Part shown: piece by piece, positions 14,050-29,566 of the stretch
Numbering within the stretch: the first letter of the stretch is position 1
How the letters are laid out: every line of letters begins with the position of its first letter
NCBI GenBank assembly: GCA_963713545.1
Contig: CAVQME010000003.1
Coordinates: 6,446 to 70,445, forward strand
Direction: 5' to 3'
DNA: 64,000 bases
DNA from: an uncultured Actinomycetes bacterium
Lineage (GTDB): Bacteria; Actinomycetota; Thermoleophilia; RBG-16-64-13
Program-made: the position numbers and the translations under genes
Notes under the pieces: model-generated
Seen by the model: the letters and a program-made list of their open reading frames with translations, nothing else
Told to the model about the DNA's origin: nothing
Databases searched by the model: none

Positions 14050-14076
14050 TAAAGCCATCCTTGAGAACGCCGATAC
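14050..14076 (+). promoter_or_regulatory. Sigma-28 (FliA/SigD/WhiG)-type promoter
   Basis: TAAA-N15-GCCGATAC versus consensus TAAA-N15-GCCGATAA, 70 nt upstream of the pilin start. Confidence 0.75.
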
Positions 14077-14146
14077 GTGAACCAACGGCCACAGAGGCCG
14101 ACTAGCCGCGAAGGTTCGTGGGATCGATCGGCTAAACAAGGCGGAA

Positions 14147-14608: not shown

Positions 14609-14615
14609 ACACGGA

Positions 14616-14640
14616 GGGCCCCGGCCGTCGGCCGGGGCCC
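14616..14640. terminator. GC-rich hairpin between convergent genes
   Basis: GGGCCCCGGCC-gtc-GGCCGGGGCCC perfect 11-bp stem; no U-tract. Confidence 0.55.
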
Positions 14641-14741
14641 CGACTTACAGCTTCGCTGGAGCATGTGATCTACCGATAGATCCTGTCCTCAGCCACGTAC
14701 TTGGGCGGGCCCCACCGGTATGGATGACGTGGTTGCCTTTC

Positions 14742-15296
14742 TCAGTCGACGTAGTTGACGGCACCCTTCGGCTCGCGCTCGCTCGCTCGGAACTTGGTCT
14801 CATCGGCGATGTAGCCGAAGACGACCGCGCATTGGACTCTGTAATCATCAGGTATGCCGACCTCTTGCGCCAGAGCCTTGTTCTGCTCCGCGTTCAGCGT
14901 GAAGGACGGCGTTAGAAGGAAGCACGATCCCAGTCCCAGTTCGGTTGCCTGGAGCAGCATGTTTTCGGCAGCCGTGGCCACGTTGAAGTGGTTGAGAGGG
15001 TAGTCGGCCGGCGCGGACAGAGCGATCAGCGCCGGGGCGCCGTAGAGCGGCCGGTATCCGGGCAAAGACGCCCTGCTGATCAAGAAATCGTCGCCCGAGG
15101 CGAGCATGGCCTGATAGGTCGCCTCGTCCAGCCGCCCGAGCAGGTCCGCGTTGCGGATGACCGACATGTTGAAGTCTCCGTGGTTGGGAGCCCACCGGCC
15201 GGCCTCGACTATCTTAGCCACGTTCTCGGCCGGCACCTTCTTGTCCAGGTACGACCGGATACTTTTCCTCTGCGCGATCACTTCCTCGACGGTCAT
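14742..15296 (-). CDS. Nitroreductase family protein
   Basis: RKSIRSY, AGRWAPN, AAENMLLQATELGLGSC. Confidence 0.9.
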   Translation of the reverse strand: MTVEEVIAQRKSIRSYLDKKVPAENVAKIVEAGRWAPNHGDFNMSVIRNADLLGRLDEATYQAMLASGDDFLISRASLPGYRPLYGAPALIALSAPADYPLNHFNVATAAENMLLQATELGLGSCFLLTPSFTLNAEQNKALAQEVGIPDDYRVQCAVVFGYIADETKFRASEREPKGAVNYVD

Positions 15297-15392
15297 GTTC
15301 GTCTCCCTGTTCGGCGGTTTGCCTGCTCTTGAACTCTCGAGACTATAGCGCGGAAGGGCGGCCGCGGAGTGGCGATGCACACGGCAGCTGCC

Positions 15393-15875
15393 TCACGCGG
15401 CCGGCTGGAGTGTCTTCACAATCCCGGCCAGGTCGTAGCCCACGTCGGCAACGGATCCGAGCAGCCGGGTGTAAAGTGCCTCGTCCATCTGGGGAGTGCG
15501 GCTAAGGATCCACAGATACTTCCGGCTCGGATGGCCTACGACGGCCCACTGGTATTCCTCGTCGAGCCCGATGATCCAATACGCGCCCCAGAACGGCCAG
15601 AAGAAGGTGACCTTGAGCTTGGAGTTGGTGGCCTTGTCGACGACCCGGGCCTTGCCACGCGCCTGGCGGAGCTTGCCGTCCAGTGTGCCCTCAAGGCAGG
15701 TGTTGACGACCTGGATGTCCCCCTTCTTGCGAAGCGTGTATTCTGCCGTCACCCCAACGCAGCCCTTCTGAAAACGCTGGGGGATGGTGGCGATCTCGTA
15801 CCACTTCCCGAGGTACCTCTGTAGGTCGACGTAGGCTACGGCCTCGAGCGGCTTCTTCGCTGCGGTATCCTTCAT
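15393..15875 (-). CDS. blc: Bacterial lipocalin (Blc-like), no signal peptide
   Basis: VDLQRYLGKWYEIA, KLKVTFFWPF, YLWILSRTP. Confidence 0.9.
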   Translation of the reverse strand: MKDTAAKKPLEAVAYVDLQRYLGKWYEIATIPQRFQKGCVGVTAEYTLRKKGDIQVVNTCLEGTLDGKLRQARGKARVVDKATNSKLKVTFFWPFWGAYWIIGLDEEYQWAVVGHPSRKYLWILSRTPQMDEALYTRLLGSVADVGYDLAGIVKTLQPAA

Positions 15876-15879
15876 AGCC

Positions 15880-16710
15880 CTACGCTTTCCAGAGTACGAT
15901 GTCGCCCAGGTTCTGGTCTTTCTGGGTGGCGTCGATGGGACCCAGCTTCTGGGTCAAGTAGCCCGCTTTCTCGATGGTCAGGGTGTAGGTGCCGTCCGCA
16001 AGGCCCTTCAGCCAGAAGTCGCCGTAGTTGTCGGTTACGGTAGAGACCGTCTCCCCCGTCTCCCGGTTCTTCGCGGTGACCGTGGCCCCTTCGGTGCACT
16101 CGTCGGCTTCGGAGTCGTAGACGGCGCCGGCTATCCACTTCTTAGGTAGGTTGAGGTAGTAGACCCGGGGACGGGTGGGGAGTTCGGGCTTTAAGAGCTC
16201 GGCTTTAGCGAGGAGGTCCTTTATCTTGGGATCGTCTTCCTCCCCGAAGGTGAAGGCCCCGGTGGGGCAGGCGTCCGAACAGCGGGTCTCGGTCCAGCCC
16301 TGGTCTAAGAGATGGGCGCAGAAGGTGCACTTCTGGGCGATGTTCAAGTCGTCGTTAAAGTAGATGACGTTCTCATAGGGGCAGGCTTCCAGACAGAGCT
16401 GGTTACCCCGGCACTCGTGCGGGTCGATGATGACGATGCCGTCGGGGCGGCGGTAGATGGCCCCGGCCGGGCAGGCTTCGATACAGGGGGCCTCCTCGCA
16501 GTGCTGGCAGATGGTGTGGTGGTAGGTCACCTGCACTTTGGGCACCGTGCCCCGTTCTAGGTTGATCACCTTGTTCCAGAACTGGCCGGTATCCGGTTGG
16601 GGTTTGGCGATGGGGGTCCAGTCGTTGGCCACGTGCTCGTCTTTACAGCTCACTTGGCAGTTGTGGCAGCCGTTACAGATGGCGAGATCGATGACGAGGA
16701 CCTTGCCCAT
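15880..16710 (-). CDS. 4Fe-4S beta subunit of Mo enzyme, pyrogallol transhydroxylase beta-like, with C-terminal beta-sandwich domain
   Basis: CNGCHNC..C, CQHCEEAPC..C, KCTFCAH, TRPRVYY, TDNYGDF; ATG overlaps alpha-subunit stop. Confidence 0.88.
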   Translation of the reverse strand: MGKVLVIDLAICNGCHNCQVSCKDEHVANDWTPIAKPQPDTGQFWNKVINLERGTVPKVQVTYHHTICQHCEEAPCIEACPAGAIYRRPDGIVIIDPHECRGNQLCLEACPYENVIYFNDDLNIAQKCTFCAHLLDQGWTETRCSDACPTGAFTFGEEDDPKIKDLLAKAELLKPELPTRPRVYYLNLPKKWIAGAVYDSEADECTEGATVTAKNRETGETVSTVTDNYGDFWLKGLADGTYTLTIEKAGYLTQKLGPIDATQKDQNLGDIVLWKA

Positions 16711-19340
16711 CACTCCACCCCCTCCATCATCACGCCCGCGAGACAGGGACCAGCAGTCGGGTGGCACTCACGCTCGAACGCTTCCGGGTATTTGCGTCTC
16801 ATCTCTTCCAGGTCCGTCTTCTCCACTTCCACCAGGAAGCCGGAGACGGCCATCCCCACCGTGTTCTTGGAGGTCGTGTTGCGGGGCACGATGGTGTTGA
16901 TCACCCCGCCCCGGTCGATCTCGCCCGGCACGATCGGGTCGTATTTGGCCCCGTGGTCGATCCCGACCGCGCCCGGAATGATCCGCTCGGTGACGTAGGC
17001 TCCCGCGAGGACCGTGCCCCGCTCGTTGAAGATGCTGACCACGTCTCCATGCTTTATGCCCCGCGACTTGGCGTCCACCGGGCTCATCCACAGGGGATGG
17101 TACTGATACCCGTCCGGCCCCTTGACCTTGCACGTATCGATCTCCCGGAACCAGGTGATGTCGTCGTGCTGGGAGTGCACTCCCCAGCGGGGGTGGTTGC
17201 TCATCACGAGCAGCGGATACTTCTTGCTCCTCTCCGTCCCGATGGTCTCCTGGTGGGATTCACCCTCCGGGATCCACTTGGGCACCGGCGGCCGCTCCTC
17301 GTCATCGGGGAAGTGCTCGGCAAGACCGGTGGCGTAGAACTCCAGCTTGCCGGTCGGCGTCGAGAGCGGGTGCTTCTCCGGATCCTCGTAGAACTCGATG
17401 AGGCCGGCCGGGATCTTCTCCCAGTCCGGGTCGGTGGGGATCACGTAGTAGCCCTTCTCGTTCAGTTCCTCCCAGCTGATCTTGTCCGCGGACCCGGAGT
17501 GTTCCCAGCCCAGCTTGATGATCTCGGGGATGGTCAGTCCACCGGTGTACTCCTCCAGCATCCCCAGGCGTTCGGCGATCTTGCAGACGACCTCGTAGTC
17601 GCTGCACGACTCGCCCAACGACTCCATGCAGGGGGGCTCGGGGAAGAGCATGTCCATCTGCCCGCTGAAGATGTCGCTGCCGATGTCGTCCTCTTCCAAC
17701 TTGGTGTCGACCGGTAGTATGACGTCAGCGAACAGAGCGTCGTTCTCGATCCACGGGTGCTGGCAGAAGATGAACTCGATGTCGGGGTGACGCAGGGCCC
17801 GGATGAACATGTTTCCGTCGTTCCAGCAGGTGATCCAGGAGGGCGAGTCGGTCCAGATCATATGGATCTTGGAGGCGCCGTCGGCCGGGTACTTGTACTG
17901 GATGAACTGGTCCTCTCGGTCGCTGCGCATGCCGTATTTGTTGCCGTACCAGGTGCCCTGGCCGTCGAGGATCAGCTTGGGCACGAGCGTCTTGGGGATG
18001 AGGGAGTCGCGGCCGTACTCAGACGGCATGTCGCCCCGGTAGGCGGCATACAGGTCGGTGATCACCGTCGGCTTGGGTGCCGCCTGGTTCTCCGGGTCGG
18101 CAGCGAGGGCCCACTCGATCATCTTGGCCTGGTTGCAGCCGGGCTTGCCCAGCCCCTGCATGGCCAGACACAGCACCTGCAGCCGGGCTGGCTCCGTGGA
18201 ATAGGGCCCGCGGATGCCGGGCCCCCCATTGCCGATGACGACGGTGGTGCGCTTGGATGCCCATTCGTCGGCCAGAGCCTTGATGATGCGGGTGGGCACC
18301 CCCGTGATAGGGGCCGCCCACTCGGGGCTCTTGGGCACGCCGTCTTCCTCGCCCATCACGTAGACCTCGAACTGTTCCACGCCATACGCGTGGGTCGCCA
18401 GGTAGGCTTTGTCGTAGGTGCCCCGAGTGAACCAGCGGTGGGCGATGGCCAGATAGAGAGCAGCGTCGGTGTTGGGCCGGATAGGGATCCACTTGTCCGC
18501 ATGCACTGCGCTCGCGTAGTTGCAGTCCGGCGCGATGTAGACCTGCTTGATGCCTAGCTCCGTCCACCAGTAACTCAGTCGGCTGGGAAGCTGTCCCCCC
18601 CAGCCCCAGGTGGTGGTTTCCTGGTCGCAGCCCCAGAAGAGCAGGAGTTCCGCGTTCTTAGAGATGTCATAGAGCAGGTTCTTCTGCGGCAGTTGCTGGC
18701 CGATCGGCTCGCAACCCCACACGTGCTTGGCCCCCCAGTACCAGCCCTCCCAGCTATCGGCGTTGCGGACCTGGTGGGTGTAGCCGCCGAACAGGTCGAG
18801 CAGCTTGCGGCCGCAACCATGAGGTCCGTGCACGGTCTTGTTCTCGCCGTGTTGGTCGTTCTGGTAGAGGATGGCGGTGGGGCCGTAGGTCTCCTTGACG
18901 CGCAGCATCTCACCGGTGACTATGTCAAGCGCTTCGTTCCACGAGATCCTTTCGTACTTGCTTACCCCCCGGTTCTGAATGTTGCGCCCGCCCGGGCCGA
19001 CCGAGCCTGGGGCCCCGGCCGGATCGAAATCCACCCGCTTCATCGGGTAGCGGATGCGGGCCGGGGAGAAGACCCGCTTCTTATAGGCGATGCTGTAGGG
19101 AGGGGGGAGCGTCTTGTCCCCCGGCTCGAAGGTCTTGCCCCGGGCGTGCATCACCCAGGGCTTGACCTCTTCCTTGGTGTACTTGTCGTAGAAGCGGGCG
19201 GGGCGGATGCGCAGGACCCTGCCGTCCTTGACGTCGATCATGCAGGCGTTGCCCCCCCAGGGGACCCCGATGAAACACATGTCACGGACCATGGTCCTCT
19301 CTCCGGATTCCCCCACTGGACTGTTCGTCGATTCCTGCAC
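16710..19340 (-). CDS. Mo/W-bisPGD (DMSO reductase family) catalytic subunit, pyrogallol transhydroxylase alpha-like, cytoplasmic
   Basis: RIRYPMKR, NADSWEGWYWG (Ser ligand), PIRPNTD, HPRWGVHSQ; no N-terminal 4Fe-4S motif or Tat signal; GTG at 19340 with AAAGGAG. Confidence 0.88.
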   Translation of the reverse strand: MQESTNSPVGESGERTMVRDMCFIGVPWGGNACMIDVKDGRVLRIRPARFYDKYTKEEVKPWVMHARGKTFEPGDKTLPPPYSIAYKKRVFSPARIRYPMKRVDFDPAGAPGSVGPGGRNIQNRGVSKYERISWNEALDIVTGEMLRVKETYGPTAILYQNDQHGENKTVHGPHGCGRKLLDLFGGYTHQVRNADSWEGWYWGAKHVWGCEPIGQQLPQKNLLYDISKNAELLLFWGCDQETTTWGWGGQLPSRLSYWWTELGIKQVYIAPDCNYASAVHADKWIPIRPNTDAALYLAIAHRWFTRGTYDKAYLATHAYGVEQFEVYVMGEEDGVPKSPEWAAPITGVPTRIIKALADEWASKRTTVVIGNGGPGIRGPYSTEPARLQVLCLAMQGLGKPGCNQAKMIEWALAADPENQAAPKPTVITDLYAAYRGDMPSEYGRDSLIPKTLVPKLILDGQGTWYGNKYGMRSDREDQFIQYKYPADGASKIHMIWTDSPSWITCWNDGNMFIRALRHPDIEFIFCQHPWIENDALFADVILPVDTKLEEDDIGSDIFSGQMDMLFPEPPCMESLGESCSDYEVVCKIAERLGMLEEYTGGLTIPEIIKLGWEHSGSADKISWEELNEKGYYVIPTDPDWEKIPAGLIEFYEDPEKHPLSTPTGKLEFYATGLAEHFPDDEERPPVPKWIPEGESHQETIGTERSKKYPLLVMSNHPRWGVHSQHDDITWFREIDTCKVKGPDGYQYHPLWMSPVDAKSRGIKHGDVVSIFNERGTVLAGAYVTERIIPGAVGIDHGAKYDPIVPGEIDRGGVINTIVPRNTTSKNTVGMAVSGFLVEVEKTDLEEMRRKYPEAFERECHPTAGPCLAGVMMEGVE

Positions 19341-19606
19341 GAGTCTCTCCTTTGGATGATGGTGCCCGTGGGCGTTCCCCAATCGGCTTCGAACTTGTCC
19401 CACCATATTACAGGGCTATCCGGCCGCGCCGAAGGCCTGGGGAGCCCACGGTGGACTTCCGGCGGTGTGCTTGCGGCTGCCACCGTCACTTTCGAGTCAA
19501 AGGCTCCCCTTCTGAGGGTTGGGTCGGGCTGCTGATGGGAATAGACCTGTGTTGCGGGGCCAGCGGCCGAAGCCTCCGCTGGCCCGAAACGACAAGGAGG
19601 TCAAGG

Positions 19607-19990: not shown

Positions 19991-20046
19991 TGCTGGTTGC
20001 CGGATCAGTCTCTGAGACGATCCGCGCGTTGGGCGCGAAGGGCAGC

Positions 20047-20901
20047 CTACTCCTCTTCCCGCCAGTGCCAGTCCCGGTCGCCCTTCAGCACGTTCGCGTT
20101 CATCTCTCCGCTCAGGTGCAGGAGGTTCGCTTCCGGGAAGCGTTCGGCAATGGCGTAGTAGAAGCTGGCCACATCGTCCGTCCTCGCCAGTTCTTCTTCG
20201 GTGGCGACCAGGTACCCTCTTGTGAAGTCGAGCGAACTCTTGTCGAACTGCATGCCGGGCTTCTGATGGCCCGGTATGATCACTTCGGCGCCCATCTTCT
20301 CGATCTTGTCGAGTTCCCGGATCCACTGCTCGCGCTCCCCGGGGGTGAGTTCGCAGGTGAACGGGTGGGCCTGGTTGAAGAGGACGTCGCTGGCGTACAG
20401 CGTCTTGATCGACGGTATCCACACCATGGTGTTGTATCTCATGTCGCCGATGACCTTGGAGATTATCTCGAGACGGTGCCCCTCGAGTTCCAGGTACTCC
20501 TCCGTCAGAGACTCGACCTGCACCGTCTCTCTACAAACGTTGTGAGCTCCTATCACGTTCTCCCAGATCTCGATCTTGCCGAAGAACTGCTTGTTGATGA
20601 TGTCGGCCTCCGACGGTATGGCTACTACCCGGGCCTTTGGGAATGCTTCAGCGATCGTGCCCACCCCGAAGTAGTGATCGGGATGCGCGTGGGTCAGGTA
20701 GATCGTGGTCAAGCTCTTTCCCGTTTCCAGGATCTCGGCTATGACCCGGTGGGCGTTCGATAGGGTCCACTGCGCGTCGATCAGGATCGCGTCAGTCTTT
20801 CCCATCACGATGACGGACGCGACCTCAAATCCTGCCTCATCGCTGAAGAACACCTTGGTCGACAATGAGCCTGTCCCGCTGGCGGTCAATCTGATCTCCA
20901 T
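20047..20901 (-). CDS. Metallo-beta-lactamase fold hydrolase
   Basis: THAHPDHYFG, LIDAQW, IIPGH. Confidence 0.9.
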   Translation of the reverse strand: MEIRLTASGTGSLSTKVFFSDEAGFEVASVIVMGKTDAILIDAQWTLSNAHRVIAEILETGKSLTTIYLTHAHPDHYFGVGTIAEAFPKARVVAIPSEADIINKQFFGKIEIWENVIGAHNVCRETVQVESLTEEYLELEGHRLEIISKVIGDMRYNTMVWIPSIKTLYASDVLFNQAHPFTCELTPGEREQWIRELDKIEKMGAEVIIPGHQKPGMQFDKSSLDFTRGYLVATEEELARTDDVASFYYAIAERFPEANLLHLSGEMNANVLKGDRDWHWREEE

Positions 20902-21019
20902 AGAATCATTCTCCAGTGTTGGGTTTCTAGTGAGTCTAGCACCCCTCAGGTCGTGAGCTGTTTGCGGCTGGGGCGGCTAGCGACCACGAGCGCGGACGGC
21001 TCCGTCAGCCTGGGGCGCC

Positions 21020-21745
21020 TCAGCGGCTTTCGGACGCAGTCGACATCGCCAGAGCCTCGCGAAGGGCTACGGTCGCGTGTTCGCGGAACTCAGCTCGCCG
21101 CTCGTCCTTGGAGCGGCCACAGATCGCCTCGGCCTTCCAGTCGGTGGGCCACTCCGCGTCCACGTGGACCGCCCCAGCGACGTGGAAGTGTCGGCACCGG
21201 GGCAGGGCGGCGATGATGCTGCGAGAATTCCCACGACCGTTGCAGGTCGACGGCTCCGCGGTCAGCACGACGGCACTGCACTTGACCAGGGGGGCAGCTT
21301 TCGCCCCCATGCCCTTCCGGTCGACCGGATCCAGCCCCACCCATATGGCAGGCTCTGGGTCGTCGACAGCCGAGAGCAAAGTGGCCAGCCCGCCGGCAGA
21401 AAATCCCATAAGCCCGATCCGCGACAAGTCGATCCGCTGGCTCCAAGGCTCACTCCGGCAGAAGTATGCTCGCAGGTCGGAGACAAACCTGCCGTTGCGG
21501 GCCCCATCCGACCATGCGGGCAGATCCGGCACCACCGTTACGAAGCCCTCCGCCGCTAGATGCCTGCCCCATTCGGACATACTCTGGCGATTTCGCCAGA
21601 ATCCGTGGGCCACGATCACCAGGGGCGCCGGCTCTGCGGTGTCCGGCCGGTAGACATCAACGTGGGCAGTACCTGCAGCCAGTCTCAGCCGCATAGTCTC
21701 GCAGGCCGGCCCCGCGACGAAACGGCTCGCACCAGCCCCGGTCAC
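21020..21745 (-). CDS. Alpha/beta hydrolase (dienelactone hydrolase/chlorophyllase-like)
   Basis: AHGF, GFSAGG nucleophile elbow, GLDPVD, C-terminal His. Confidence 0.8.
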   Translation of the reverse strand: MTGAGASRFVAGPACETMRLRLAAGTAHVDVYRPDTAEPAPLVIVAHGFWRNRQSMSEWGRHLAAEGFVTVVPDLPAWSDGARNGRFVSDLRAYFCRSEPWSQRIDLSRIGLMGFSAGGLATLLSAVDDPEPAIWVGLDPVDRKGMGAKAAPLVKCSAVVLTAEPSTCNGRGNSRSIIAALPRCRHFHVAGAVHVDAEWPTDWKAEAICGRSKDERRAEFREHATVALREALAMSTASESR

Positions 21746-21830
21746 GAGACCCCCACCTCTGCCGCGATCAGGTTGGCGACAAACTGCTGTGTGGGATGTT
21801 GAGTTCTCACAGCAGACCCGGGCTGAGCTG

Positions 21831-22793
21831 CTACACGACTTCGATGGTCGACGGCGGTTTGGGCGCTATGTTGTAGGTGACGCTGACGACGCCGGGCACC
21901 GCGAGGATGATCTCCTCGGCCAGCTGTTCCAGGACCTCGAAGGGTACATGGGTGGGTGTGGCGGTGCGGGCGTCGATGCTGTTCCAGCAGCGCACTTCGA
22001 TCTGCAGACCGAAGTCGCGCTTCCCGTCGCGCATGCCGGTCACCCGGTCTTCGTGGAGGATGGCCATGTACTGGAAGGCGCCGAAGCCCGACAGGTGCCG
22101 CTCGACTACCAGCGTGGCCTGGCGGACCGCGGTGACCCGCTCCGGAGTCACCTCGCCGATCACCCGGGCGGCGAGCGCCGGCCCGGGGAAGGGGATACGG
22201 CGGAAGAGTTCGGCCGGCAGCCCGAGAGCTTCCCCCAGCTTCCTCACGCCGTCTTTGCGAAGTTGGATGAGCGGCTCCAGGATGTGGTAGCCGAAGGCCT
22301 CCTGCGGGTCGATGCCCAACTGCTCGAAAACGTTGTGCTGCCGCTTGATCCCGGCGACGGTCTCATCCACATCTGTGAGGATGGTGCCCTGAAGCAGATG
22401 CTTCGCTCCGCTTTCTTTGACCAGCCGGGCGAAGACGTCGCGGTAGAATGTCTGGGTGATGGCCTCACGCTTCTCCTCAGGATCGGTCACGCCTTTGAGC
22501 GCCGCGAAGAACTCTGCACGCGCGTCGATGACCTCCACCGTCACGCCCAGGTCGCGGAAGAAGCTCGTGACCTGCTCGGCTTCGCCGGCCCGCATGAGGC
22601 CGTTTTCGACGAAGACCGTCTTGAGACGATCGCCCAAGGCGCGATGCCCCAGCATCGTGACCGTCGAGGAATCGACCCCACCGGAGAGCGCGTTTATGGC
22701 CCACCCATCGCCGACACTGCTCCGGATCTCACCCACCTTCTCGGCGATAAAGCTCCCCGTATCGAGTTCCTGCGCGGTGATCTCCTTGATCAT
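21831..22793 (-). CDS. GMP synthase ATP-pyrophosphatase/C-terminal subunit (no glutaminase domain)
   Basis: ALSGGVDSS PP-loop, GVTDPEEKR, LQGT, PFPGPALA, YNIAPKPPSTIE; ATG at 22793 with GGAGGAG. Confidence 0.88.
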   Translation of the reverse strand: MIKEITAQELDTGSFIAEKVGEIRSSVGDGWAINALSGGVDSSTVTMLGHRALGDRLKTVFVENGLMRAGEAEQVTSFFRDLGVTVEVIDARAEFFAALKGVTDPEEKREAITQTFYRDVFARLVKESGAKHLLQGTILTDVDETVAGIKRQHNVFEQLGIDPQEAFGYHILEPLIQLRKDGVRKLGEALGLPAELFRRIPFPGPALAARVIGEVTPERVTAVRQATLVVERHLSGFGAFQYMAILHEDRVTGMRDGKRDFGLQIEVRCWNSIDARTATPTHVPFEVLEQLAEEIILAVPGVVSVTYNIAPKPPSTIEVV

Positions 22794-23037
22794 GCGACCC
22801 TCTCCTCCACTGTGATGAAGACGCCGAGCAACCATGCGGCTGGTAAGACTCGAAAGCCCCTGGTCGTGCCCCCGGCTCGAGACATATGCAGACTCTATAG
22901 GTCGCATGGCTGCCTGTCCAGCGGAGCGCCGGCAGGCCGAGATGATTGACCTGCAAGGGCATCGACCTATACTGGGAATCCGAGCCACCGCGCGGGTCCC
23001 GCGCCGGTGTCGCGTCACCCCGGAAGGAGGAGGAACC

Positions 23038-23640
23038 ATGGTGGCACAACAGCCGGGATGGGAGATCAAAGGCGTCTACAACGAGGCGTGCGCGTCCGAG
23101 GGTCAATGCCCCTACTACTTCGGTAGGGACAAGGAGGGAGGGTGCCGCTACTTCATGGTCTTTCGGATCACGGAGGGCACGGTGAACCGGGTCGACCTGT
23201 CAGGTATCACGGCCATCTACCTGGGCGATCTTCCGCACTCCACCTATGTCGAGGTCGTCGAGAAAGGATCCGAAGGCGCGATCTATGTCAGCGACGGCGC
23301 GACGTCCGAACAGCGCGCCGTCCTCGACACGCTGGTGGTCGAGGCACTTGGTGGCGTACTGATGAAGAGGGTGCTCGGTGTGAACTATGTCCCCATCGGT
23401 GTCGAGGAAGGCGACGGTGCGGTGCACTTCAGAATGCCGGCCGGGGAGATGAAGATGGTGCTGACGAGGAGCCACAACGGCGACCCGGTGCGTCTGGAGA
23501 ACGCGACCCTTCCCTTCCTCTCGGACGTCAAGGCCGCCCACACACTCTTCTGGAACTGGTCGGACTACAGCAGGCACTTCGAGTACCGGGATCGCTGCGG
23601 CACTTGGGCCGACTTCCTGATGCGTTCCGAGCCCGCGTAG
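23038..23640 (+). CDS. DUF1326 domain protein
   Basis: W.IKG.YNEAC...CPYYFG...C..F.I..G....VDLSG, AT.EQRA.L; GGAGGAGG SD. Confidence 0.75.
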   Translation: MVAQQPGWEIKGVYNEACASEGQCPYYFGRDKEGGCRYFMVFRITEGTVNRVDLSGITAIYLGDLPHSTYVEVVEKGSEGAIYVSDGATSEQRAVLDTLVVEALGGVLMKRVLGVNYVPIGVEEGDGAVHFRMPAGEMKMVLTRSHNGDPVRLENATLPFLSDVKAAHTLFWNWSDYSRHFEYRDRCGTWADFLMRSEPA

Positions 23641-23677
23641 CCCGGCGGCGGCCGACCGCCCGCAACTTCTGGCGGGC

Positions 23678-23713
23678 TTGCTTATAACCGTTTATACGGG
23701 TACAATGGCGTAT
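23678..23713 (+). promoter_or_regulatory. Sigma-70-type promoter with overlapping inverted repeats (candidate ArsR operator)
   Basis: TTGCTT-N17-TACAAT; TATAA-N4-TTATA (23683-23696) and ATACG-N10-CGTAT (23694-23713). Confidence 0.6.
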
Positions 23714-23777
23714 GTACTCATGTCGGAGCGTGGGCACATCGCGCCCCATTGTGGCAGGCAGCAGAGGAGGATCGAGG

Positions 23778-24179
23778 ATGACCGACACGGGCGAACGGCA
23801 ACGGCCGGGGCTGGTCATGTGCGTCTGCACCGGCAAGTGTCCGGGCTTCGAGAAGATGGATATCTGGGACTTCATCAACCGGGTGCGGATCGAACTCCCG
23901 GTGGAGTTCGCCTTCATCCATCCACAACTCTGCGAGGAGGACGGCGACCGCTTTCTCGCCGACTTCCTCGAGGCCAAGCGGCCGCTCGTCATCGCCGGCT
24001 GCGCCCCCAACATGCAGTACAAGCTCTTCCGGGACGCCTTCACCGCGAAAGGCATGGACGTGAAGAAGGACATGCTCCCCCTCGATATCCGCGATATGAC
24101 GACCGACGACGCCGTCGAGAAGGTCGCGAGAGCTCTCGACGCGATAGGGGTCGAGAAGACGGCAATCGAGGCGGAATGA
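23778..24179 (+). CDS. Stand-alone HdrA N-terminal-like Fe-S domain protein
   Basis: CVC..KC, HPQLC, VIAGCAP, DIR pattern parallels the HdrA N-terminal domain (CxC...C...AACSP...NIRE). Confidence 0.7.
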   Translation: MTDTGERQRPGLVMCVCTGKCPGFEKMDIWDFINRVRIELPVEFAFIHPQLCEEDGDRFLADFLEAKRPLVIAGCAPNMQYKLFRDAFTAKGMDVKKDMLPLDIRDMTTDDAVEKVARALDAIGVEKTAIEAE

Positions 24180-24454
24180 CCGAGACTTTCATGGGGGTGT
24201 CTCGGGAGAAGATCCCCTGGGCGCCGGTGATCGATTACGCGAAGTGCGATTTTTGCATGGACTGCGACGAGTTTTGTCCCCATAGGGTCTTCGAACGCCG
24301 GGACGAAGAGCCGATCCTGGTGGTAGCCAACCCGAACAACTGTGTGGTCTTCTGCAGGGCGTGCGCCAAGCTCTGCGGCCCCGACGCGCTCTCTTTCCCG
24401 GACAAACCGGAGACGATCGCACTCATCAAGCAACTGCGGGAAGCGGACTCGTGA
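24176..24454 (+). CDS. 2x[4Fe-4S] ferredoxin
   Basis: CDFCMDCDEFCP and CVVFCRACAKLCG; ATGA overlap with upstream gene. Confidence 0.88.
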   Translation: MTETFMGVSREKIPWAPVIDYAKCDFCMDCDEFCPHRVFERRDEEPILVVANPNNCVVFCRACAKLCGPDALSFPDKPETIALIKQLREADS

Positions 24455-25338
24455 AGCACGCCGTTCTCTCCTGCAGCGGCATGGACAAAGCCGAGGGCTC
24501 GCTCGCCCGCGAGGTGGCGATCAGGTTCGCAGAGAGGACGGGAGCGGACATCGTCTGCCCGGTGCTTCTGAATCGGACGGCGGCTCGCTACAAGAAGCTC
24601 CTGGCCGAGGAAGCGCTCGTGATAATCGACGGCTGCGGTACCCGCTGCGCGAGCAAGCTCACCGCCGGTCTGGACGCGAGAACGGAGAGGAAGATCTCGA
24701 TTTCGGATGCTCTCAAGGCTCGGGGGCTCTTGCCGGGAACGTCGCTGCGTCTGGAGCCAGCCGATCTCGCTCTGGTCGAGACTATCGTCGACGACCTGAT
24801 CGCAGGACTCGCAGCTCCGCCGACGCCACCGGCGTCTGCATCTCCCGATGCTCAGCAGGAGGCGGCGTCCAGTTCCAACGTTCGGACCTGGGAACCCCCG
24901 AACGACTTTGCCGTCGTCGTCCACGACAAATACGAGTTCCACATCCCCAAGAATGACTACTTCTTCAACGAGAACGACGTGTGGGCGCGTCCGTTGGGCG
25001 ATCGGGCGCGAGTGGGCATCTCAGACTACATGCAGCAGCGGCTGACCGATGTCAACTACTTCGACCCGCCCGATGTCGGTGCCGAGATCGAGCAATTCGA
25101 TGAAGTGGGCAGCGTCGAGTCGGTCAAGGCGGCGTTCGAGGTGATCTCTCCCGTCAGTGGAAGAGTAGTGGCCGTGAACGAGGCAGTCACAGATAGGCCC
25201 GAGCTTGTGAACGAGGACCCGTATGGTCACGGCTGGCTGGCGGAACTCGAACTGGCCGATTGGCAGGGGGAACGGGAGCTCCTTCTGGACGGGGTCCACT
25301 ACGCGAAGAGCGTGGAGCAGAAGGCGGCTGAGGAATGA
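24451..25338 (+). CDS. DGC-domain / glycine-cleavage-H (lipoyl carrier) fusion protein
   Basis: N-term SCSG..VC..IIDGCGTRCA (DGC); C-term VGISDY, GSVESVKAAFEVISPVSG with lipoyl Lys (codon 25126-25128), VNEDPYGHGW. Confidence 0.85.
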   Translation: MKHAVLSCSGMDKAEGSLAREVAIRFAERTGADIVCPVLLNRTAARYKKLLAEEALVIIDGCGTRCASKLTAGLDARTERKISISDALKARGLLPGTSLRLEPADLALVETIVDDLIAGLAAPPTPPASASPDAQQEAASSSNVRTWEPPNDFAVVVHDKYEFHIPKNDYFFNENDVWARPLGDRARVGISDYMQQRLTDVNYFDPPDVGAEIEQFDEVGSVESVKAAFEVISPVSGRVVAVNEAVTDRPELVNEDPYGHGWLAELELADWQGERELLLDGVHYAKSVEQKAAEE

Positions 25339-25841
25339 CAGGGAGAGAGCCGACGGGGAGCGATCCGGAGAGAGACCGGCAGGGGGTTGGGGGCGCGAGG
25401 GCGGTCGCAAGCGTTGAAGGCGGCGACACCGGACTTCGCTTTCTCGTGATCCCCTGTAGCGGCATCGGCAAGGTGCAAGGACTTCTTGGTCGGGAGGCCA
25501 CCTATCAGCTGGTCGATGAACTTGCACCAGGGGAGGCGGGCACAGTCTGCCTTGCTTTGCTCGTGAGAGAGGACCCCGAAGCTCTCGAGAAAGTGCGCCG
25601 GCATCCTTGCATCGCCGTCGACGGATGCGCCAAAGCCTGCGCTCAGAAGAGCCTTGAGATCGCGGATGGCGACCTGCGAGTCTCCGTACAGGTGGCCGGG
25701 ATACTGAGCAAGCACCGAGGCGCGCAACCGGGGGATGGCTCGGCGCTGACCGACGAAGGTTGGGAAATAGCTAGGGAGATCGCAGAGACGTTGGCCTCGG
25801 AGGCCAGAGGCCTCGAGAGCGGAGGGGAGGCGCCTCAGTGA
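25335..25841 (+). CDS. DGC domain (putative Zn-binding) protein
   Basis: PCSG, TVCL, AVDGCAKACA. Confidence 0.85.
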   Translation: MTGREPTGSDPERDRQGVGGARAVASVEGGDTGLRFLVIPCSGIGKVQGLLGREATYQLVDELAPGEAGTVCLALLVREDPEALEKVRRHPCIAVDGCAKACAQKSLEIADGDLRVSVQVAGILSKHRGAQPGDGSALTDEGWEIAREIAETLASEARGLESGGEAPQ

Positions 25842-26266
25842 GCGATGCTCCGAGCGGCCCCGCCAGCAAGGTGGGCGTGATCTCCTGCAGCGGGGAGGAG
25901 ATAGCGGAAGGCACCATCTCTCGTCTCGCTACCCGGCAGGTCCTGGAATCCCTGCGCCCGGGGGTGACGGTGACCCTTTGTCTCCCCCTGTTCGCGGCGG
26001 GCAACGAGGGGGAAAGGAACTTCGCCCGGACCCACCCGATGATCACCATCGACGGATGCGATAAGCAGTGTGCGAAGTGGGCCACGGAGAAGTACGGGGA
26101 GCGGCCGGTACGACGGGCACTCGTCGTGTCGGACATCCTCGGAGAGGAGGGCGCCGCGTGCCGGCGTTCGCTCCGAGATCAAGGAGAGGCCGACCGAGAG
26201 GCCACGCGGGTGGTGGCGGAGAAGATCGCAACGGAGGTCGACTCAGTGCTGGCGGAAGAGAGGTAA
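25838..26266 (+). CDS. DGC domain (putative Zn-binding) protein
   Basis: SCSG, TLCLP, TIDGCDKQCA. Confidence 0.85.
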   Translation: MSDAPSGPASKVGVISCSGEEIAEGTISRLATRQVLESLRPGVTVTLCLPLFAAGNEGERNFARTHPMITIDGCDKQCAKWATEKYGERPVRRALVVSDILGEEGAACRRSLRDQGEADREATRVVAEKIATEVDSVLAEER

Positions 26267-26282
26267 AGAGAGGTAAGGCCTG

Positions 26283-26681
26283 ATGAGAGAGCTCGCAGAC
26301 ACCTTCAAGGCCCTTTCGGACGAGACCCGCCTGCAGATCGTGACGCTGCTTCTCGACCGCGAGGAGCTGTGCGTCTGCGACTTTGTCGGCGCACTGGGTC
26401 TTACTCAATCGAAGGCTTCGCGGCACCTGCGCTATCTGTACAATGCCGGTCTGGTGGAGGACCGGCGAGAAGGCCTCTGGATGCACTATCGTGTCTCGAC
26501 GCGCCTCTCTGCCGAGCAGCAACTCATCGTCGCCGCCCTGGCACAAGCGATCGGCGAGGAGCGCAGGCAAGAGCTCGGCCGGTCGCTCGAGGACTGGTTC
26601 AAGCGGAAGGCGGCCCAGGCGGAGGGTGACCAGAGCGGGGCCACATCCTGCTGCGGACCGGCTTTGGGCGCCACGCAATGA
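26283..26681 (+). CDS. arsR: ArsR/SmtB family regulator with As(III)-type sites
   Basis: FKALSDETRLQI, ELCVCD, SRHLRYL..AGLV, C-terminal CC. Confidence 0.9.
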   Translation: MRELADTFKALSDETRLQIVTLLLDREELCVCDFVGALGLTQSKASRHLRYLYNAGLVEDRREGLWMHYRVSTRLSAEQQLIVAALAQAIGEERRQELGRSLEDWFKRKAAQAEGDQSGATSCCGPALGATQ

Positions 26682-26965
26682 GCGACCACGACGAGAAGGA
26701 GGGAGTCTTGATCGAGGTGAAGGTGTTCGGCAGCGAGCCTCCGTGCGTGAAGTGCAAGCGGCTGGAGGAGGCGGCGAGGCGGGCCGCGGAGGAGTTCCCC
26801 GGCCAGGTCACTGTGGCCAAGTACTCGGCGCTCTCTCCCGAGGGGAAGGCGCTTGCCCTCGAAGCGACCCCGGCTTTGGTCGTCAACGGCAAGATCGTGT
26901 CTCAGGGCAGGATCCCAGAGCAGGCCGAGCTCATACAGATGTATCAGGCCCAGCTAGGAGGATGA
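26678..26965 (+). CDS. Small thioredoxin-fold redox protein (CVKC)
   Basis: PPCVKC, TPALVVNG. Confidence 0.85.
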   Translation: MSDHDEKEGVLIEVKVFGSEPPCVKCKRLEEAARRAAEEFPGQVTVAKYSALSPEGKALALEATPALVVNGKIVSQGRIPEQAELIQMYQAQLGG

Positions 26966-26966
26966 G

Positions 26967-27242
26967 ATGGCGGTTCTGTTGGAGGTCTTCAGTGGCGATC
27001 CCCCCTGCCCGGGCTGCGTAGCCATCCTCGCCATGGCCGACCGCTATGCCGAGAAGTATCCTGCGGATGAGCTCGCGGTGAAGAGTTACGTCGGCCAGGA
27101 GGCCCTCGAGAAATACGCGGAGTACGACCTGTCTTGCGTGCCGGCGGCCGTCATCAATGGGGTCATCAAGATAGAGGGAACGGCCCCGGACGAGGGCACC
27201 ATGAACAACGCGCTGCGGGAGGGTGGGCTGTGGATCCGATAA
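26967..27242 (+). CDS. Small thioredoxin-fold redox protein (CPGC)
   Basis: PPCPGC, CVPAAVING. Confidence 0.85.
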   Translation: MAVLLEVFSGDPPCPGCVAILAMADRYAEKYPADELAVKSYVGQEALEKYAEYDLSCVPAAVINGVIKIEGTAPDEGTMNNALREGGLWIR

Positions 27243-27493
27243 GAGTGGAGGTCTTCCTCTCCGTACCGGCTTGCTCGGGCGGTGTCGCCGTCAGGCGCCT
27301 GATCGACGAGGTGGCGCAGCGCTACGGCGATCAGATGGACGTCGTGTACCACCAAGGGCGCGACGCCCGCTATGAGGAGTTGAAGCTCTCATCGGCCCCG
27401 GCCATCATCGTGGGCGATCTGGTGCGCTTCATCGGACTCTGCCCTACCAAGGAAGGCCTGATCGGCGCGCTCAGGGAAGCCGGGTTGGAGTAG
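27230..27493 (+). CDS. Small thioredoxin-fold protein (CSGG, monothiol motif)
   Basis: VEVFLSVPACSGG, APAIIVG, GLCP; GTG at 27230; paralogous to preceding gene (ALREGGL/ALREAGL). Confidence 0.75.
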   Translation: MDPIRVEVFLSVPACSGGVAVRRLIDEVAQRYGDQMDVVYHQGRDARYEELKLSSAPAIIVGDLVRFIGLCPTKEGLIGALREAGLE

Positions 27494-27667
27494 CTGCTCG
27501 TCCGTCGGCGCGCCGCGCTTTTGGCACGATCCACGGAAACGACGCCCCCGAAAGCGACTGTCGCTGAAGCGGCGACCTCGCGACCGACCGCCTCGGAGAC
27601 GACTAAGGGGGTGTGGTCAGCCGTGGGAGCCGTCGCTGCCGCGGTGCGCTGGGCGCAAGCCGCAGGA

Positions 27668-28459
27668 TCAGGCTCGTAGCGGTCCGACGAGGGCCCGCAG
27701 CTTTTCCTCCGGTAGCGCCAGCAATCCCGCCAAGGTCATGGCCAAGCTGTCGCCGGCGACCTTGGAGCCCCGATACAATCCAGGGAAAGAACCGGCGAGC
27801 CGGGGTTCTCTAAGGACCGCCAGCGCGACTCTGGGAAGGCTCAGCCTACCCCGGGCGTCGACCATCGAGTCTAGGTCCCACTCGATTTCATCGTTGAGTA
27901 CGTCACTGACGGCCCTTAGACCTAGGAAGGCAATGTTGCGAGCGTGGGCTGCCGCCGCGATAGACGTACTCTCCATCTCAGTTACGGCGGCTGTTGCAGG
28001 CACGAGCGCAGCGAGCATGGCTTTCGACAGCAGTCGGTCCACAGTGACAAACCGAGCGGGCCGAACGCTCATGCCCTCGAGCAGCGCGGCAAGGTCCGGG
28101 CTGGGACTGAACTTGAATCGCACGGGGCAGGTACGGCTCACGTCGTCGTAGACGGCCAGCTCGCGGGCGTACACCGCGTGGCCAAGAGCAAGGTCGGGTG
28201 AGAGGGCGCCGGCGAAGCCCACCGACATGATCAGGTCGGGGAGGGCCTGAGTAACCGTCCCGGCGAAGATGTGCAGAGCGGCGCACTTCGCGGCCAAGTT
28301 GCCCATGCCCGTCTCTACTAGAAGAACTTCAGTCTCTGAAGACTGATGGCGCCAGGTACGGAACGGCCGGCGGGCGAGCGAGCGCCAGCCAGGCATCACT
28401 TTCAAGAGTGGGCCTGTCTCCTGCGGCAGGGCCGCGAAGACCACTACGTGCAGTGCCAT
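27668..28459 (-). CDS. Purine phosphorylase/MTA-SAH nucleosidase family protein (HpnG-like)
   Basis: AALPQE, TGMG, SVGFAGAL, EMES, LRAVSD. Confidence 0.82.
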   Translation of the reverse strand: MALHVVVFAALPQETGPLLKVMPGWRSLARRPFRTWRHQSSETEVLLVETGMGNLAAKCAALHIFAGTVTQALPDLIMSVGFAGALSPDLALGHAVYARELAVYDDVSRTCPVRFKFSPSPDLAALLEGMSVRPARFVTVDRLLSKAMLAALVPATAAVTEMESTSIAAAAHARNIAFLGLRAVSDVLNDEIEWDLDSMVDARGRLSLPRVALAVLREPRLAGSFPGLYRGSKVAGDSLAMTLAGLLALPEEKLRALVGPLRA

Positions 28460-28524
28460 GGGGAAACATTACCAAGACCGTGAGTCGCCGGCGCAGGTCC
28501 GTGTCGACCTGACGCTGCGACGGG

Positions 28525-28842
28525 TCAGTCAAGGGGGATGACGAACTGGATCTCGTTCCTCCGGATGAGAAGGACGTCGTATTCGACGGAGTCTTTGTCG
28601 GGCTGTCTGATGGCTCCTGGCTTGCCGGCCCGTCCGACCTTTGCGATCTCCCCGGGTGTCTCACCCGTCTTGCGGAGAACGACGTCGGTCAGAGCAAGGA
28701 ACTCTTTGCTCTCATTCAAGAGATCGAGGACCCGGCCTTTGTAGCCACCCGGTCTCGGGACGATGAGGTCACCCTCACACCAGAAGTCCCTGGCCTGTAT
28801 TTGAACCCGGACGCTATGGCTCCCCGCTTCCATGCGCAACAT
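28525..28842 (-). CDS. Small hypothetical protein (DUF6812-like)
   Basis: G.L..P....RVLDLLN...FLALTD...LLIRRNEIQFVIP pattern. Confidence 0.65.
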   Translation of the reverse strand: MLRMEAGSHSVRVQIQARDFWCEGDLIVPRPGGYKGRVLDLLNESKEFLALTDVVLRKTGETPGEIAKVGRAGKPGAIRQPDKDSVEYDVLLIRRNEIQFVIPLD

Positions 28843-28872
28843 CCTTGCGAAGAGTTATCGACTCGCTCCCTC

Positions 28873-29109
28873 TTATCGTCTACTTGCACCCACTCCTTTA
28901 AGCGGGGCGAAGTGCCGTGTGGATCTGTGGTGGGGGAGCGCCCGGTGGATCCAAGCCGGCCACGCAAGACCAGCCGTGTCGATCAGCGCCCGGATTCCCG
29001 CGACGAACAAGGGTAGGAAGTTCTGCCTGAGGTTCATTGGCTTCGCCGACTCCAACAGCTCGCCACGCCGGATCTGCGAAATCTCCCACAGCAGTACTCG
29101 GTCCATCAT
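28873..29109 (-). CDS. Possible small hypothetical protein (78 aa)
   Basis: ATGATG with GGGGA SD; fills the gap and is co-oriented with the downstream gene. Confidence 0.35.
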   Translation of the reverse strand: MMDRVLLWEISQIRRGELLESAKPMNLRQNFLPLFVAGIRALIDTAGLAWPAWIHRALPHHRSTRHFAPLKGVGASRR

Positions 29110-29119
29110 CGCTCGTCCC

Positions 29120-29566
29120 CAGATCCTGACTCGCGAGGGTTGGCCCGTGGTGGTCCAGACCCGCTCGCCTCTGATCCTCCGCGAAGCCGATATCCTCAGC
29201 CACGCGCTGGATCTCGAAGTCGGCTTGACGGTCACCACGGCGGCCGACGGCATCCGAAGGCTGTTCGAACCGCAGGCTCCGCCTATCGAGGAGGGGATCA
29301 AGGCCCTGGATGAATTGCATCGTGCCGGCATCAAGACTTTCGCCATGATCGCGCCGTTGCTTCCCGGTGCTGAAGAACTCGCTGGCTTACTCGCGGGCAA
29401 GGTCGCCCACGTGCTCATCGACAGGATGAACTACAACTACGGCGCGTGGGTGTACCGCAAGTACGGGATGAGGGAAAAACTCTGCGAAGACTTCTTCCGA
29501 CAGACCTCGAGCGAACTGGTTTCCACGCTCGAGGCAGCAGGCGTCCCCTGTCGGGTCGTGTACTGA
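29120..29566 (+). pseudogene. C-terminal remnant of radical SAM protein (SplB/Rv2578c-like)
   Basis: QTRSPLILR..D, VGLTVTT, FEP.APP, IAPLLPG present; no CxxxCxxC and no family-like N-terminus in frame. Confidence 0.7.

Follow-up and report, generated by a model that had tools for sequence, protein, structure and literature searches.

What might an ArsR-type repressor govern in a row of nine small genes that holds no efflux pump? The question is raised by a cassette in a 64,000-nucleotide (nt) stretch of DNA (hereafter the window; contig CAVQME010000003.1, positions 6,446 to 70,445) from an uncultured Actinomycetes bacterium of the class Thermoleophilia (assembly GCA_963713545.1, labelled G000 here; C10, C2 and C13 are contigs, relatives are labelled G001 onward and fetched loci carry the letter L). 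Nine plus-strand open reading frames (ORFs), p1-p9, were found at 23778-27493 behind a single promoter/operator site at 23678-23706. In an initial annotation they were taken for an anaerobic thiol relay that sequesters metalloids, or repairs metalloid or sulfur damage, rather than relying on export. We propose, with moderate confidence, that the cassette is a mobile, ArsR-controlled accessory of arsenic islands, the products of which would form a relay that supplies or carries protein-bound dithiols for ArsM and Acr3.

Conservation of a five-gene core

A scan of one genome per species returned 389 candidate stretches, 312 of them with a relative of p1, and the best 80 of the 312 were fetched (L017-L096; all counts over 80 loci refer to this set, some members of which may be the same places as the kin loci L011-L014 and L016). 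Synteny was counted in the 73 loci that hold at least 2.7 kb after the start of p1, and in 72 of them p1-p5 were all present in the same order, an arrangement that is far beyond chance. The grouping of these genes into one system by the initial annotation was borne out for the core, which is co-conserved in these loci as well as in L011-L014 and L016, where tblastn located p1-p5 in order, followed by ArsR and/or three thioredoxins (Trx). In the sole exception, L043, p1-p2 is duplicated and a complete core is preceded by an insertion; its segment 8001-12900 reads p1-p2, about 2.4 kb of other DNA, a partial p1 and complete p2-p5, and resembles an operon insertion with partial duplication. By record title the best 80 loci belong to Acidobacteriota (45), Actinomycetota (25), Bacteroidota (4), Armatimonadota (3) and unlabelled bacteria (3), and all are metagenome-assembled genomes (MAGs).

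The main layouts are an Acidobacteriota type, ArsR-Trx-p1..p5-LplA, and an Actinomycetota type, (acr3-arsM-)p1..p5-ArsR-Trx x3. An ArsR gene was found upstream on the same strand in 33 of the 80 loci and downstream in 15, a single ArsE-type Trx directly upstream in 28 and the three-Trx set in nine. Directly 3' of the core, 29 of the 80 loci carry an LplA-type ligase gene (PF21948, 102.9-147.6 bits; under the TIGR00545 cut-off, 177.8 < 280), and the parallel with lipoate-protein and Hdr-like systems drawn at the outset is an apt one. Single hits of at least 75% length could be extracted from the 80 loci for p1 in 79, p2 in 75, p3 in 69, p4 in 40 and p5 in 76, and residue conservation was read from alignments of 25 hand-picked diverse loci. 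Two loci read as single ORFs across gene borders (L029:5981-7486, p1-p2-p3; L078:8001-8669, p1-p2), either as real fusions or through assembly indels, and hits were fragmented in several long-read-style loci.

Among relatives of the window's genome, the full DGC::GcvH fusion gene that encodes p3 was found in three of 40 (G003, G007 and G020) in addition to G000. It occurs at two places in G003, one of them broken by frame shifts, and at two in G007, and a split variant is present in G010. A second whole copy of the cassette in G003 (L016:2400-6620, on C13) is frame-split in p1, p3, p8 and p9 and lies beside fragmented acr3 and arsM; it may be a decaying cassette or may reflect assembly indel errors.

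Association with arsenic islands

A homologue of ArsR was found within 8 kb of the cassette in 70 of the 80 loci, and Acr3, ArsM or ArsP, at 40% identity or more to references, in 40 (the references scored 464 > 282.8 for Acr3, TIGR00832; 342.6 > 263 for ArsM, NF008823; and 243 bits for ArsP, PF03773). In L011, L012 and L014 the cassette stands directly 3' of acr3-arsM, with a metallophosphoesterase gene between them in L011 and L014; a divergent ArsR gene is present in L011, and a radical S-adenosylmethionine (SAM)/SPASM gene lies upstream in all three. G000 itself carries arsR divergent from acr3-arsM-phosphoesterase at C10:195237-198360. As this is its one Acr3 locus in 3.16 Mb, the chance of adjacency within 16 kb is about 0.5%.

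These neighbourhoods bear on the claim that the system has no efflux pump. Inside 23678-27493 it stood, as no gene for a pump, ArsC, ArsM, GcvP/T or HdrBC was found there in the ORF list or by Pfam and NCBIfam. It did not stand beyond these borders, with acr3-arsM directly upstream in L011, L012 and L014 and on C10, and the notion that the cassette works instead of export has to be given up, since kin cassettes follow acr3-arsM and the arsR/acr3-arsM-phosphoesterase set of G000 has a similar operator. Sequestration or repair as such is a possible role of the cassette. In its pump-independent form, with As(III) or Sb(III) held on lipoyl and Cys sites or thiol damage repaired, it would suit a window locus with no transporter, the many Cys3/4 sites with a dithiol cofactor, and the textbook tight binding of trivalent arsenicals by dihydrolipoyl groups. 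We consider this form improbable, since the same cassette is joined to acr3-arsM operons in kin, G000 has acr3-arsM with a similar operator, and a stoichiometric sink would need neither a ferredoxin nor an Fe-S input module.

Of 24 relatives in the window's family, 20 have an ArsM match above the cut-off and 18 an Acr3 match above the cut-off. Because both are common there and the cassette is rare (three of 40 relatives), the cassette is best regarded as an optional add-on to a family which, from its gene content, seems to rely on efflux and methylation.

Several other genes were noted in these islands. In the Bacteroidota locus L089, a Prolixibacteraceae-titled MAG, the cassette is followed downstream by ArsR, an ArsC::ArsM fusion, DsbD, hgcA (NF040863, 427 > 275 bits) with a small ferredoxin at 13111-14434, and Acr3 at 14461-15507, so that predicted mercury-methylation genes are embedded in the arsenic island beside the cassette. 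In L011:3-3561 (minus strand), upstream of the divergent ArsR, lie the radical-SAM/SPASM gene, with an AbrB/MazE-like N-terminus, an LplA-type ligase gene and a gene for a DUF5714 protein with a sub-cut-off match to the metal-binding selenoprotein MbdU; radical-SAM homologues were found in nine of the 80 loci. In L017 the place of the Trx between ArsR and p1 is taken by a fourth, canonical DGC protein (7327-7716; PF08859, 93.8 bits), and a chromate-transporter-family gene lies 3' of the LplA-like gene. Small PF04060 'putative Fe-S cluster' proteins stand near the cassette in seven of the 80 loci (L015:11647-13129 is an instance), one with a CdhD-like part. The arsM match of G000 (C10:195976-196779) spans one in-frame TGA, which may be an edge effect, a break or a selenocysteine codon.

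Mobility of the cassette

In the congener G001, window positions 20040-23635 and 27663-29120 match one contig, in which about 350 bp of unrelated DNA replaces the 4.0-kb cassette. The presence of the same flanks without the cassette indicates that it moves as a unit. Congeners share 79-87% identity in the flanking DNA, and p3 of the window is 59% identical to that of the congener G003 versus 70% to that of L019, its sister in a quick maximum-likelihood tree of 68 rows of 250-360 amino acids (aa) plus the window (Shimodaira-Hasegawa approximate likelihood ratio test, SH-aLRT, 98). A p3 closer to L019 than to a congener, between conserved flanks, fits independent acquisition. Phylum labels cluster in the tree (5 changes, minimum 3), with a 39-row Acidobacteriota clade nested among Thermoleophilia-titled rows, and since the tree is unrooted no donor is claimed. 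In the same loci p1 is 71-89% identical across phyla and p3 38-71%, and the much stronger conservation of p1 argues for constraint on this protein, not recent spread alone. A tblastn search with p1 against a plasmid collection gave no match, and no att-like repeats were noticed by eye at the cassette borders in the comparison with G001.

Promoter, operator and repressor

The sequence 5' of p1 reads TTGCTT-ATAACCG-TTTATA-CGGGTA-CAAT, and the same layout of -35 hexamer, inverted repeat and -10 hexamer aligns upstream of p1 in L025, L026 and L068. Position 23678, previously given as the start, belongs to the -35 hexamer and is not a gene start. In strict form the operator motif was found 5' of p1 in four of 76 loci (L019, L025, L026 and L063), all of the Actinomycetota layout and one with arsM just upstream. 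Within the 3.16 Mb of G000, ATAACCG-N6-CGGNTA was found once, at the cassette promoter, and a similar TAACCG-N6-CGAGTA sits between arsR and acr3 on C10. The site was missed by the automatic promoter scan, as its -35 hexamer matches at only 3 of 6 positions, and an inverted-repeat search of 23600-23800 with a 6-nt seed returned nothing, the operator half-sites being visible only through the locus alignment.

The repressor is encoded by the sixth gene, p6, and not by the first as in the earlier gene order, and shares 56% identity with the ArsR encoded next to acr3 on C10. In R773-type ArsR proteins a CVC or ELCVCD-type motif marks the As(III) site, with its Cys pair in the region that binds DNA, and CVC was found in 33 of the 49 same-strand ArsR proteins that adjoin the cassette. 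With ELCVCDF in p6 and both PF01022 and NF033788 above their cut-offs, control by an ArsR-type regulator is supported; the link to arsenic is drawn from context. ArsR-type repressors also control sulfur-oxidizing heterodisulfide reductase-like (sHdr)-LbpA systems, according to the available part of the source (PMC12423496), so the regulator family alone is no proof of arsenic. The cassette could thus be a thiol relay for sulfane sulfur, polysulfide or soft metal(loid)s (Sb, Hg, Se) that is not specific for arsenic and resides in the islands by co-selection, a view which also draws on the dependence of Hdr-like sulfur oxidation on LbpA and specific ligases (PMC6067878, in the portion available), on weak sub-cut-off NCBIfam matches to TsoR, TsoC, TsoX, SaoT and HgcB, and on hgcAB, a heavy-metal ATPase and a chromate transporter, which are present in some loci. 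We hold it to be distinctly improbable in view of the CVC motif in most adjacent ArsR proteins, the placement of the cassette in an operon after acr3-arsM, and the failure to find HdrB/C; DsrE/TusA were not seen in the loci read, although no systematic search for them was made. An identity as a Tso or Sao selenoprotein system was also considered and rejected, since the NCBIfam scores for TsoR (37.4 < 115), TsoX (25.5 < 52), SaoT (21.7 < 65) and TsoC are all far under the model cut-offs.

Gene content of the cassette

The features are listed in Table 1. Overlaps of 4 nt between start and stop join five of the eight junctions (p1/p2, with the sequence ATGA, p2/p3, p3/p4, p4/p5 and p6/p7); p5 and p6 are separated by 16 nt and p7 and p8 by 1 nt, and p8 and p9 overlap by 13 nt if p9 starts at GTG 27230. 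From p1 to p9 the proteins hold 5, 8, 4, 5, 5, 4, 2, 3 and 2 Cys. The initial picture of nine mostly overlapping, Cys-rich genes behind one promoter was thereby confirmed, and p1-p9 are predicted to be a single co-transcribed, ArsR-repressed operon. Its gene content was likewise recovered, eight of the nine proteins by Pfam and NCBIfam scans and p1 by its match to the N-terminal domain of HdrA.

Table 1. Cassette features by window position and the basis of each assignment
Feature	Position	Strand	Basis
Terminator-like hairpin	23658..23677	+	Consensus scan; ends the DUF1326 gene upstream and forms the left border of the cassette
Promoter-like site with embedded operator	23678..23706	+	TTGCTT (-35), ATAACCG-N6-CGGGTA (23684-23702), TACAAT (-10)
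p1, 133-aa Cys5 protein like the HdrA N-terminal Fe-S domain	23778..24179	+	Sequence match, AlphaFold2 (AF2) model, Foldseek
p2, 92-aa ferredoxin with two Cys4 motifs (2x[4Fe-4S])	24176..24454	+	Pfam Fer4/4Fe-4S dicluster families
p3, DGC domain fused to GcvH-like lipoyl carrier	24451..25338	+	PF08859 54.6 bits; PF01597 (GCV_H) 111.3 bits
p4, DGC-domain protein	25335..25841	+	PF08859 54.4 bits
p5, DGC-domain protein	25838..26266	+	PF08859 60.3 bits
p6, ArsR/SmtB repressor with ELCVCDF and C-terminal SCCG	26283..26681	+	PF01022 (HTH_5) 57.9 bits; NF033788 95.1 > 55
p7, small thioredoxin-fold protein, CVKC	26678..26965	+	PF13192 (Thioredoxin_3) 51.8 bits; TIGR00412 (MTH895/ArsE) 47.5 < 62
p8, small thioredoxin-fold protein, CPGC	26967..27242	+	PF13192 30.2 bits
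p9, small thioredoxin-fold protein, single active-site Cys (CSGG)	27230..27493	+	PF13192 21 < 24.8; TIGR00411 30.6, under cut-off

No Pfam or NCBIfam family matched p1. Against sequences of the Protein Data Bank (PDB) its sole suggestive match was HdrA (7bkb_A, residues 7-93, E 0.23), with four of the five p1 Cys on HdrA Cys positions, and the AF2 model (predicted local distance difference test, pLDDT, 82) drew HdrA chains as the top Foldseek rows (probability 1.00; query template modelling score, TMq, 0.57-0.61; E 6.5e-3 to 5e-2). The earlier label 'HdrA-like' is apt for this N-terminal Fe-S domain of about 90 residues and reaches no further, as p1 has neither the FAD-binding thioredoxin-reductase domain nor the two ferredoxin domains of HdrA, and no HdrB/C accompanies it. 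All 26 sequences compared retain the same five Cys (C15, C17, C21, C52 and C75). Relatives of p1 form more than 1,200 clusters at 90% identity, are 69-89% identical among the 120 listed, have no Pfam family and are labelled 'heterodisulfide reductase subunit A-like polyferredoxin' by the Joint Genome Institute (JGI); an ESM Atlas search returned only unnamed or 'HdrA-like' clusters. A HMMER search against 1.84 billion representatives gave only 108 relatives at E <= 1e-3, nearly all of them small stand-alone proteins, and one a 1720-aa protein with weak repeated matches; the stand-alone forms are 125-145 aa long. We infer that p1 is a stand-alone Fe-S module. The HdrA N-terminal domain binds its Fe-S cluster through its own Cys and one Cys of a partner subunit, as described in the part of the source at hand (PMC9012536), and the fifth invariant Cys of p1, C21, could replace the one that HdrA borrows. 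The idea that p1 is a diverged DGC domain was rejected (hhalign probability 0.3, no relation), only the placement of Cys after strands 1-3 being alike. A complex prediction of p2, p4 and p5 with p1 as partner scored 0.20 against a mark of 0.32, which neither supports nor opposes binding.

Like p1, the ferredoxin p2 is strictly conserved in its ligands, all eight Cys being invariant in 26 of 26 sequences; its best Pfam match has E 3.3e-5, and every match is slightly under the gathering score. In p3 the GCV_H domain is fused to the DGC domain in all loci aligned, and C8, C36, C62 and C66, together with K226, the lipoyl lysine of an ESxK motif, are invariant in 25 of 25 sequences. The carrier part exceeds the GcvH subfamily cut-off PRK01202 (124.3 > 117) and is under that of TIGR00527 (111.5 < 115.85). 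With GcvP/T absent from the nine genes and their immediate flanks, and a separate housekeeping GcvH at hand (a 138-aa GcvH-like ORF, G000:C2:222129-222482), p3 and its cassette are predicted not to be a glycine cleavage component. A related proposal would have the cassette be an arsenic-induced spare H-protein and lipoylation kit, which replaces or protects poisoned lipoyl enzymes and does no arsenic chemistry. It accounts for the GcvH score and for the frequently adjacent ligase gene, yet it leaves the obligatory DGC fusion, two more DGC genes, p1 and the ferredoxin in fixed order unexplained, and in the presence of the housekeeping GcvH we find it scarcely credible.

The DGC domain of p3, p4 and p5 is in each case above the PF08859 cut-off of 27 bits and in each carries four invariant Cys, those of p4 being C41, C72, C98 and C102 (17 of 17 sequences) and those of p5 C17, C48, C74 and C78 (26 of 26). 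The true start of p4 may lie downstream, as homologues begin about 30 residues later. The AF2 model of p5 (pLDDT 86) is a three-layer alpha/beta fold with Cys directly after strands 1, 2 and 3, and its matches are to generic alpha/beta folds (best VIA Z 9.2, Foldseek E 0.03 or weaker), among them transketolase or E1-beta C-terminal domains (Z 8.3-9.2), lumazine synthase and flavodoxin-like folds, and no function is deduced from these matches; a profile search of PDB sequences for a solved DGC structure gave nothing meaningful. An additional C-terminal stretch of about 90 aa, with a CxC, further Cys and no Pfam match, is absent from p5 of the window and was seen in L017:9931-10629 and in L033, L042, L054, L057, L073, L076, L084 and L092, which bear Acidobacteriota, Armatimonadota or unlabelled titles.

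The three thioredoxin-fold proteins p7, p8 and p9 are all under the TIGR00412 cut-off, which the single upstream Trx of Acidobacteriota-type loci passes (L055, 85.1 > 62). Identity to their counterparts in kin loci is 85-94% for p8 and 88-93% for p9. The active site of p9 reads CSGG, not CxxC as had been stated, and the gene more likely starts at GTG 27230, where the homologue in L011 also begins (MDPIK), the codon at 27239 being ATA.

The cassette region has a GC content of 0.61-0.66 (window composition). On the left it is bounded by the terminator-like hairpin, on the right by a convergent gene ending at 27668. The hairpin is placed just past the stop of the DUF1326 gene (23640), at the left break of homology with G001; the scan found two such sites in the region against 1.9 expected from shuffles and is weak evidence by itself. 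The DUF1326 gene directly upstream (23038-23640, 57.4 bits) belongs to the flank common to G001 and lies outside the cassette. Farther off, on the minus strand at 15880-19406, an 898-aa ORF followed by a 295-aa CxxCxxC ORF resembles, by eye only, a molybdopterin-type oxidoreductase pair.

A putative relay of protein-bound dithiols

Vicinal dithiols, dihydrolipoate among them, are very tight ligands of trivalent arsenicals, and arsenic methylation requires a thiol reductant. The parts list, with a ferredoxin, an HdrA-type Fe-S module, three Cys4 proteins, a lipoyl arm, thioredoxins and often a private ligase, suggests a relay that leads from electrons to dithiols. Together with this affinity, the thiol need of methylation and the existence of an arsenic-induced ArsR-ArsP-ArsE-DGC operon, it is the ground on which a supplier of dithiols is proposed. 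Every chemical step is one that we infer. As(III) would free ArsR from an operator that overlaps the promoter, and low-potential electrons would enter through the ferredoxin p2 and the Fe-S protein p1 and go on to the Cys4 sites of the DGC proteins, from which they could reduce the disulfide of the lipoyl group at Lys226 in p3, as well as the CxxC sites of the thioredoxins of ArsE type. The resulting protein-bound dithiols might then bind trivalent arsenicals and/or give two electrons around arsenic methylation or reduction, acting with ArsM and Acr3, the genes of which adjoin the cassette in relatives and lie on C10 in G000.

A number of observations weigh against this proposal. The window locus itself has no adjacent ars structural gene, and its cassette no ligase gene of its own; ArsR was not seen in 10 of the 80 loci, nor Acr3, ArsM or ArsP in 40, several of them being short contigs. 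Among the 49 adjoining ArsR proteins, 15 carry GEC[ST]VG rather than CVC in the matched stretch, and the use of ArsR-type repressors by sHdr-LbpA systems, mentioned above, makes the regulator a less telling clue. The link between p1 and HdrA is weak by E-value, both in sequence (0.23) and in Foldseek (6.5e-3), and hhalign shows no relation between p1 and DGC. Finally, the generic fold matches of the DGC model leave a Cys4 site that could hold Zn, Fe-S or As.

The same parts could be read as a catalyst. G000, at 96% completeness, yielded no match to either ArsC family (PF03960, PF01451), and among 24 family relatives LMWPc was found in six and PF03960 in none, yet Acr3 and ArsM are common. The main rival to a dithiol supplier is a reductase of pentavalent arsenicals (arsenate, methylarsonate, dimethylarsinate or thioarsenates) that would be self-contained and depend on ferredoxin, and in which the dihydrolipoyl arm of p3 would be the two-electron donor and would be re-reduced through p1, p2 and the DGC proteins. 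The electron-input parts p1 and p2 fit catalysis better than binding alone, and a weak fold row for the DGC model is a low-molecular-weight (LMW)-type arsenate reductase (8p6m_A, E 0.03, template modelling score 0.37-0.39). However, that row is one among many generic alpha/beta matches, and a catalytic motif was not identified. An LMWPc-type gene accompanies the cassette at L017 and at L089, and most relatives that lack the cassette lack ArsC too, with G020 having both. The absence of ArsC was dropped as an argument for a reductase, since it is a family-wide trait that does not track the cassette. We regard this reductase, with its mode of re-reduction, as unlikely, and equally doubtful is its fuller form, in which the core would be a new enzyme complex using the swinging lipoyl arm as catalytic dithiol, a ferredoxin-driven reductase of pentavalent arsenicals beside ArsM in anoxic soils. 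To our knowledge, no methylarsenate reductase has been identified in bacteria; if the lipoyl-arm reductase were real, it would be a candidate for one and the first role of lipoate in detoxification.

The supply of dithiols remains the reading that we prefer, and its possible reach is considerable. Anaerobic and facultative bacteria shape arsenic speciation in wetlands, peat and paddy-type soils. The core was found in the arsenic islands of soil bacteria from the Acidobacteriota, Actinomycetota, Armatimonadota and Bacteroidota, and its signature protein in 312 species genomes. Four of the five core proteins rest on uncharacterized families (none for p1, DGC in p3-p5). Should the cassette supply a reductant or an arsenic carrier for methylation or efflux, it would be a widespread component missed by current gene catalogues. 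The DGC domain (PF08859) would then have its first assigned function, as would an orphan Fe-S protein of high conservation, and there would be a second case, after sHdr-LbpA of sulfur oxidizers, of lipoate acting outside 2-oxoacid and glycine metabolism. As the parts are small and soluble, these hypotheses are directly testable in vitro.

Comparison with known systems

In the literature, supplements and subscription papers not covered, no description was found of the five-gene core or of a lipoyl protein in ars operons. The core thus appears undescribed, and the earlier label of a candidate new system agrees with this search. ArsE is known, from the sentences that cite it, for a role in organoarsenical resistance. 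The nearest relative in content is the ArsR5 operon of Pseudodesulfovibrio mercurii ND132, ArsR-ArsP-ArsE(PF13192)-DGC(PF08859), which was up-regulated by arsenic (bioRxiv 10.1101/2022.10.17.512643). Like the cassette it brings together ArsR, Thioredoxin_3 and DGC, of which the window has three each of the latter two; unlike the cassette it includes, as far as the accessible text goes, a permease and just one DGC protein, to which no function is assigned there, with no lipoyl carrier, HdrA-N-like protein or ferredoxin.

With sHdr-LbpA systems, as portrayed in the available parts of their sources, the cassette shares a GcvH-like lipoate protein outside glycine cleavage, an Hdr-related Fe-S protein and an ArsR-type repressor. 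Those systems also have a dedicated ligase; here an LplA-type gene adjoins the core in 29 of the 80 loci and not in the window. The cassette differs in that Pfam and NCBIfam show neither CCG-domain proteins of the HdrB/HdrC kind nor an HdrA body that binds flavin, in the fusion of its carrier to a DGC domain, and in a context of arsenic genes instead of sulfur oxidation. Similarly, p1 resembles the HdrA N-terminal domain and MvhD-type modules in its alignment to 7bkb_A (7-93) and in the HdrA chains that lead its Foldseek rows, and departs from HdrA, E-values being weak, in standing alone with a fifth invariant Cys (C21). By its gene content the cassette is thus predicted to be neither an sHdr system nor HdrA.

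Some ars operons carry dedicated thiol-reductant genes, for instance thioredoxin/thioredoxin reductase pairs of the ArsT/ArsX kind, or the metallochaperone ArsD. None of the nine proteins matched the ArsT/ArsX or ArsD families in Pfam or NCBIfam. The likeness is one of principle, an ars operon that would bring its own reductant supply or As(III) hand-off protein, and unlike ArsT/ArsX the input here would be a ferredoxin and Fe-S clusters in place of NADPH and flavin, and the carrier would be protein-bound lipoate.

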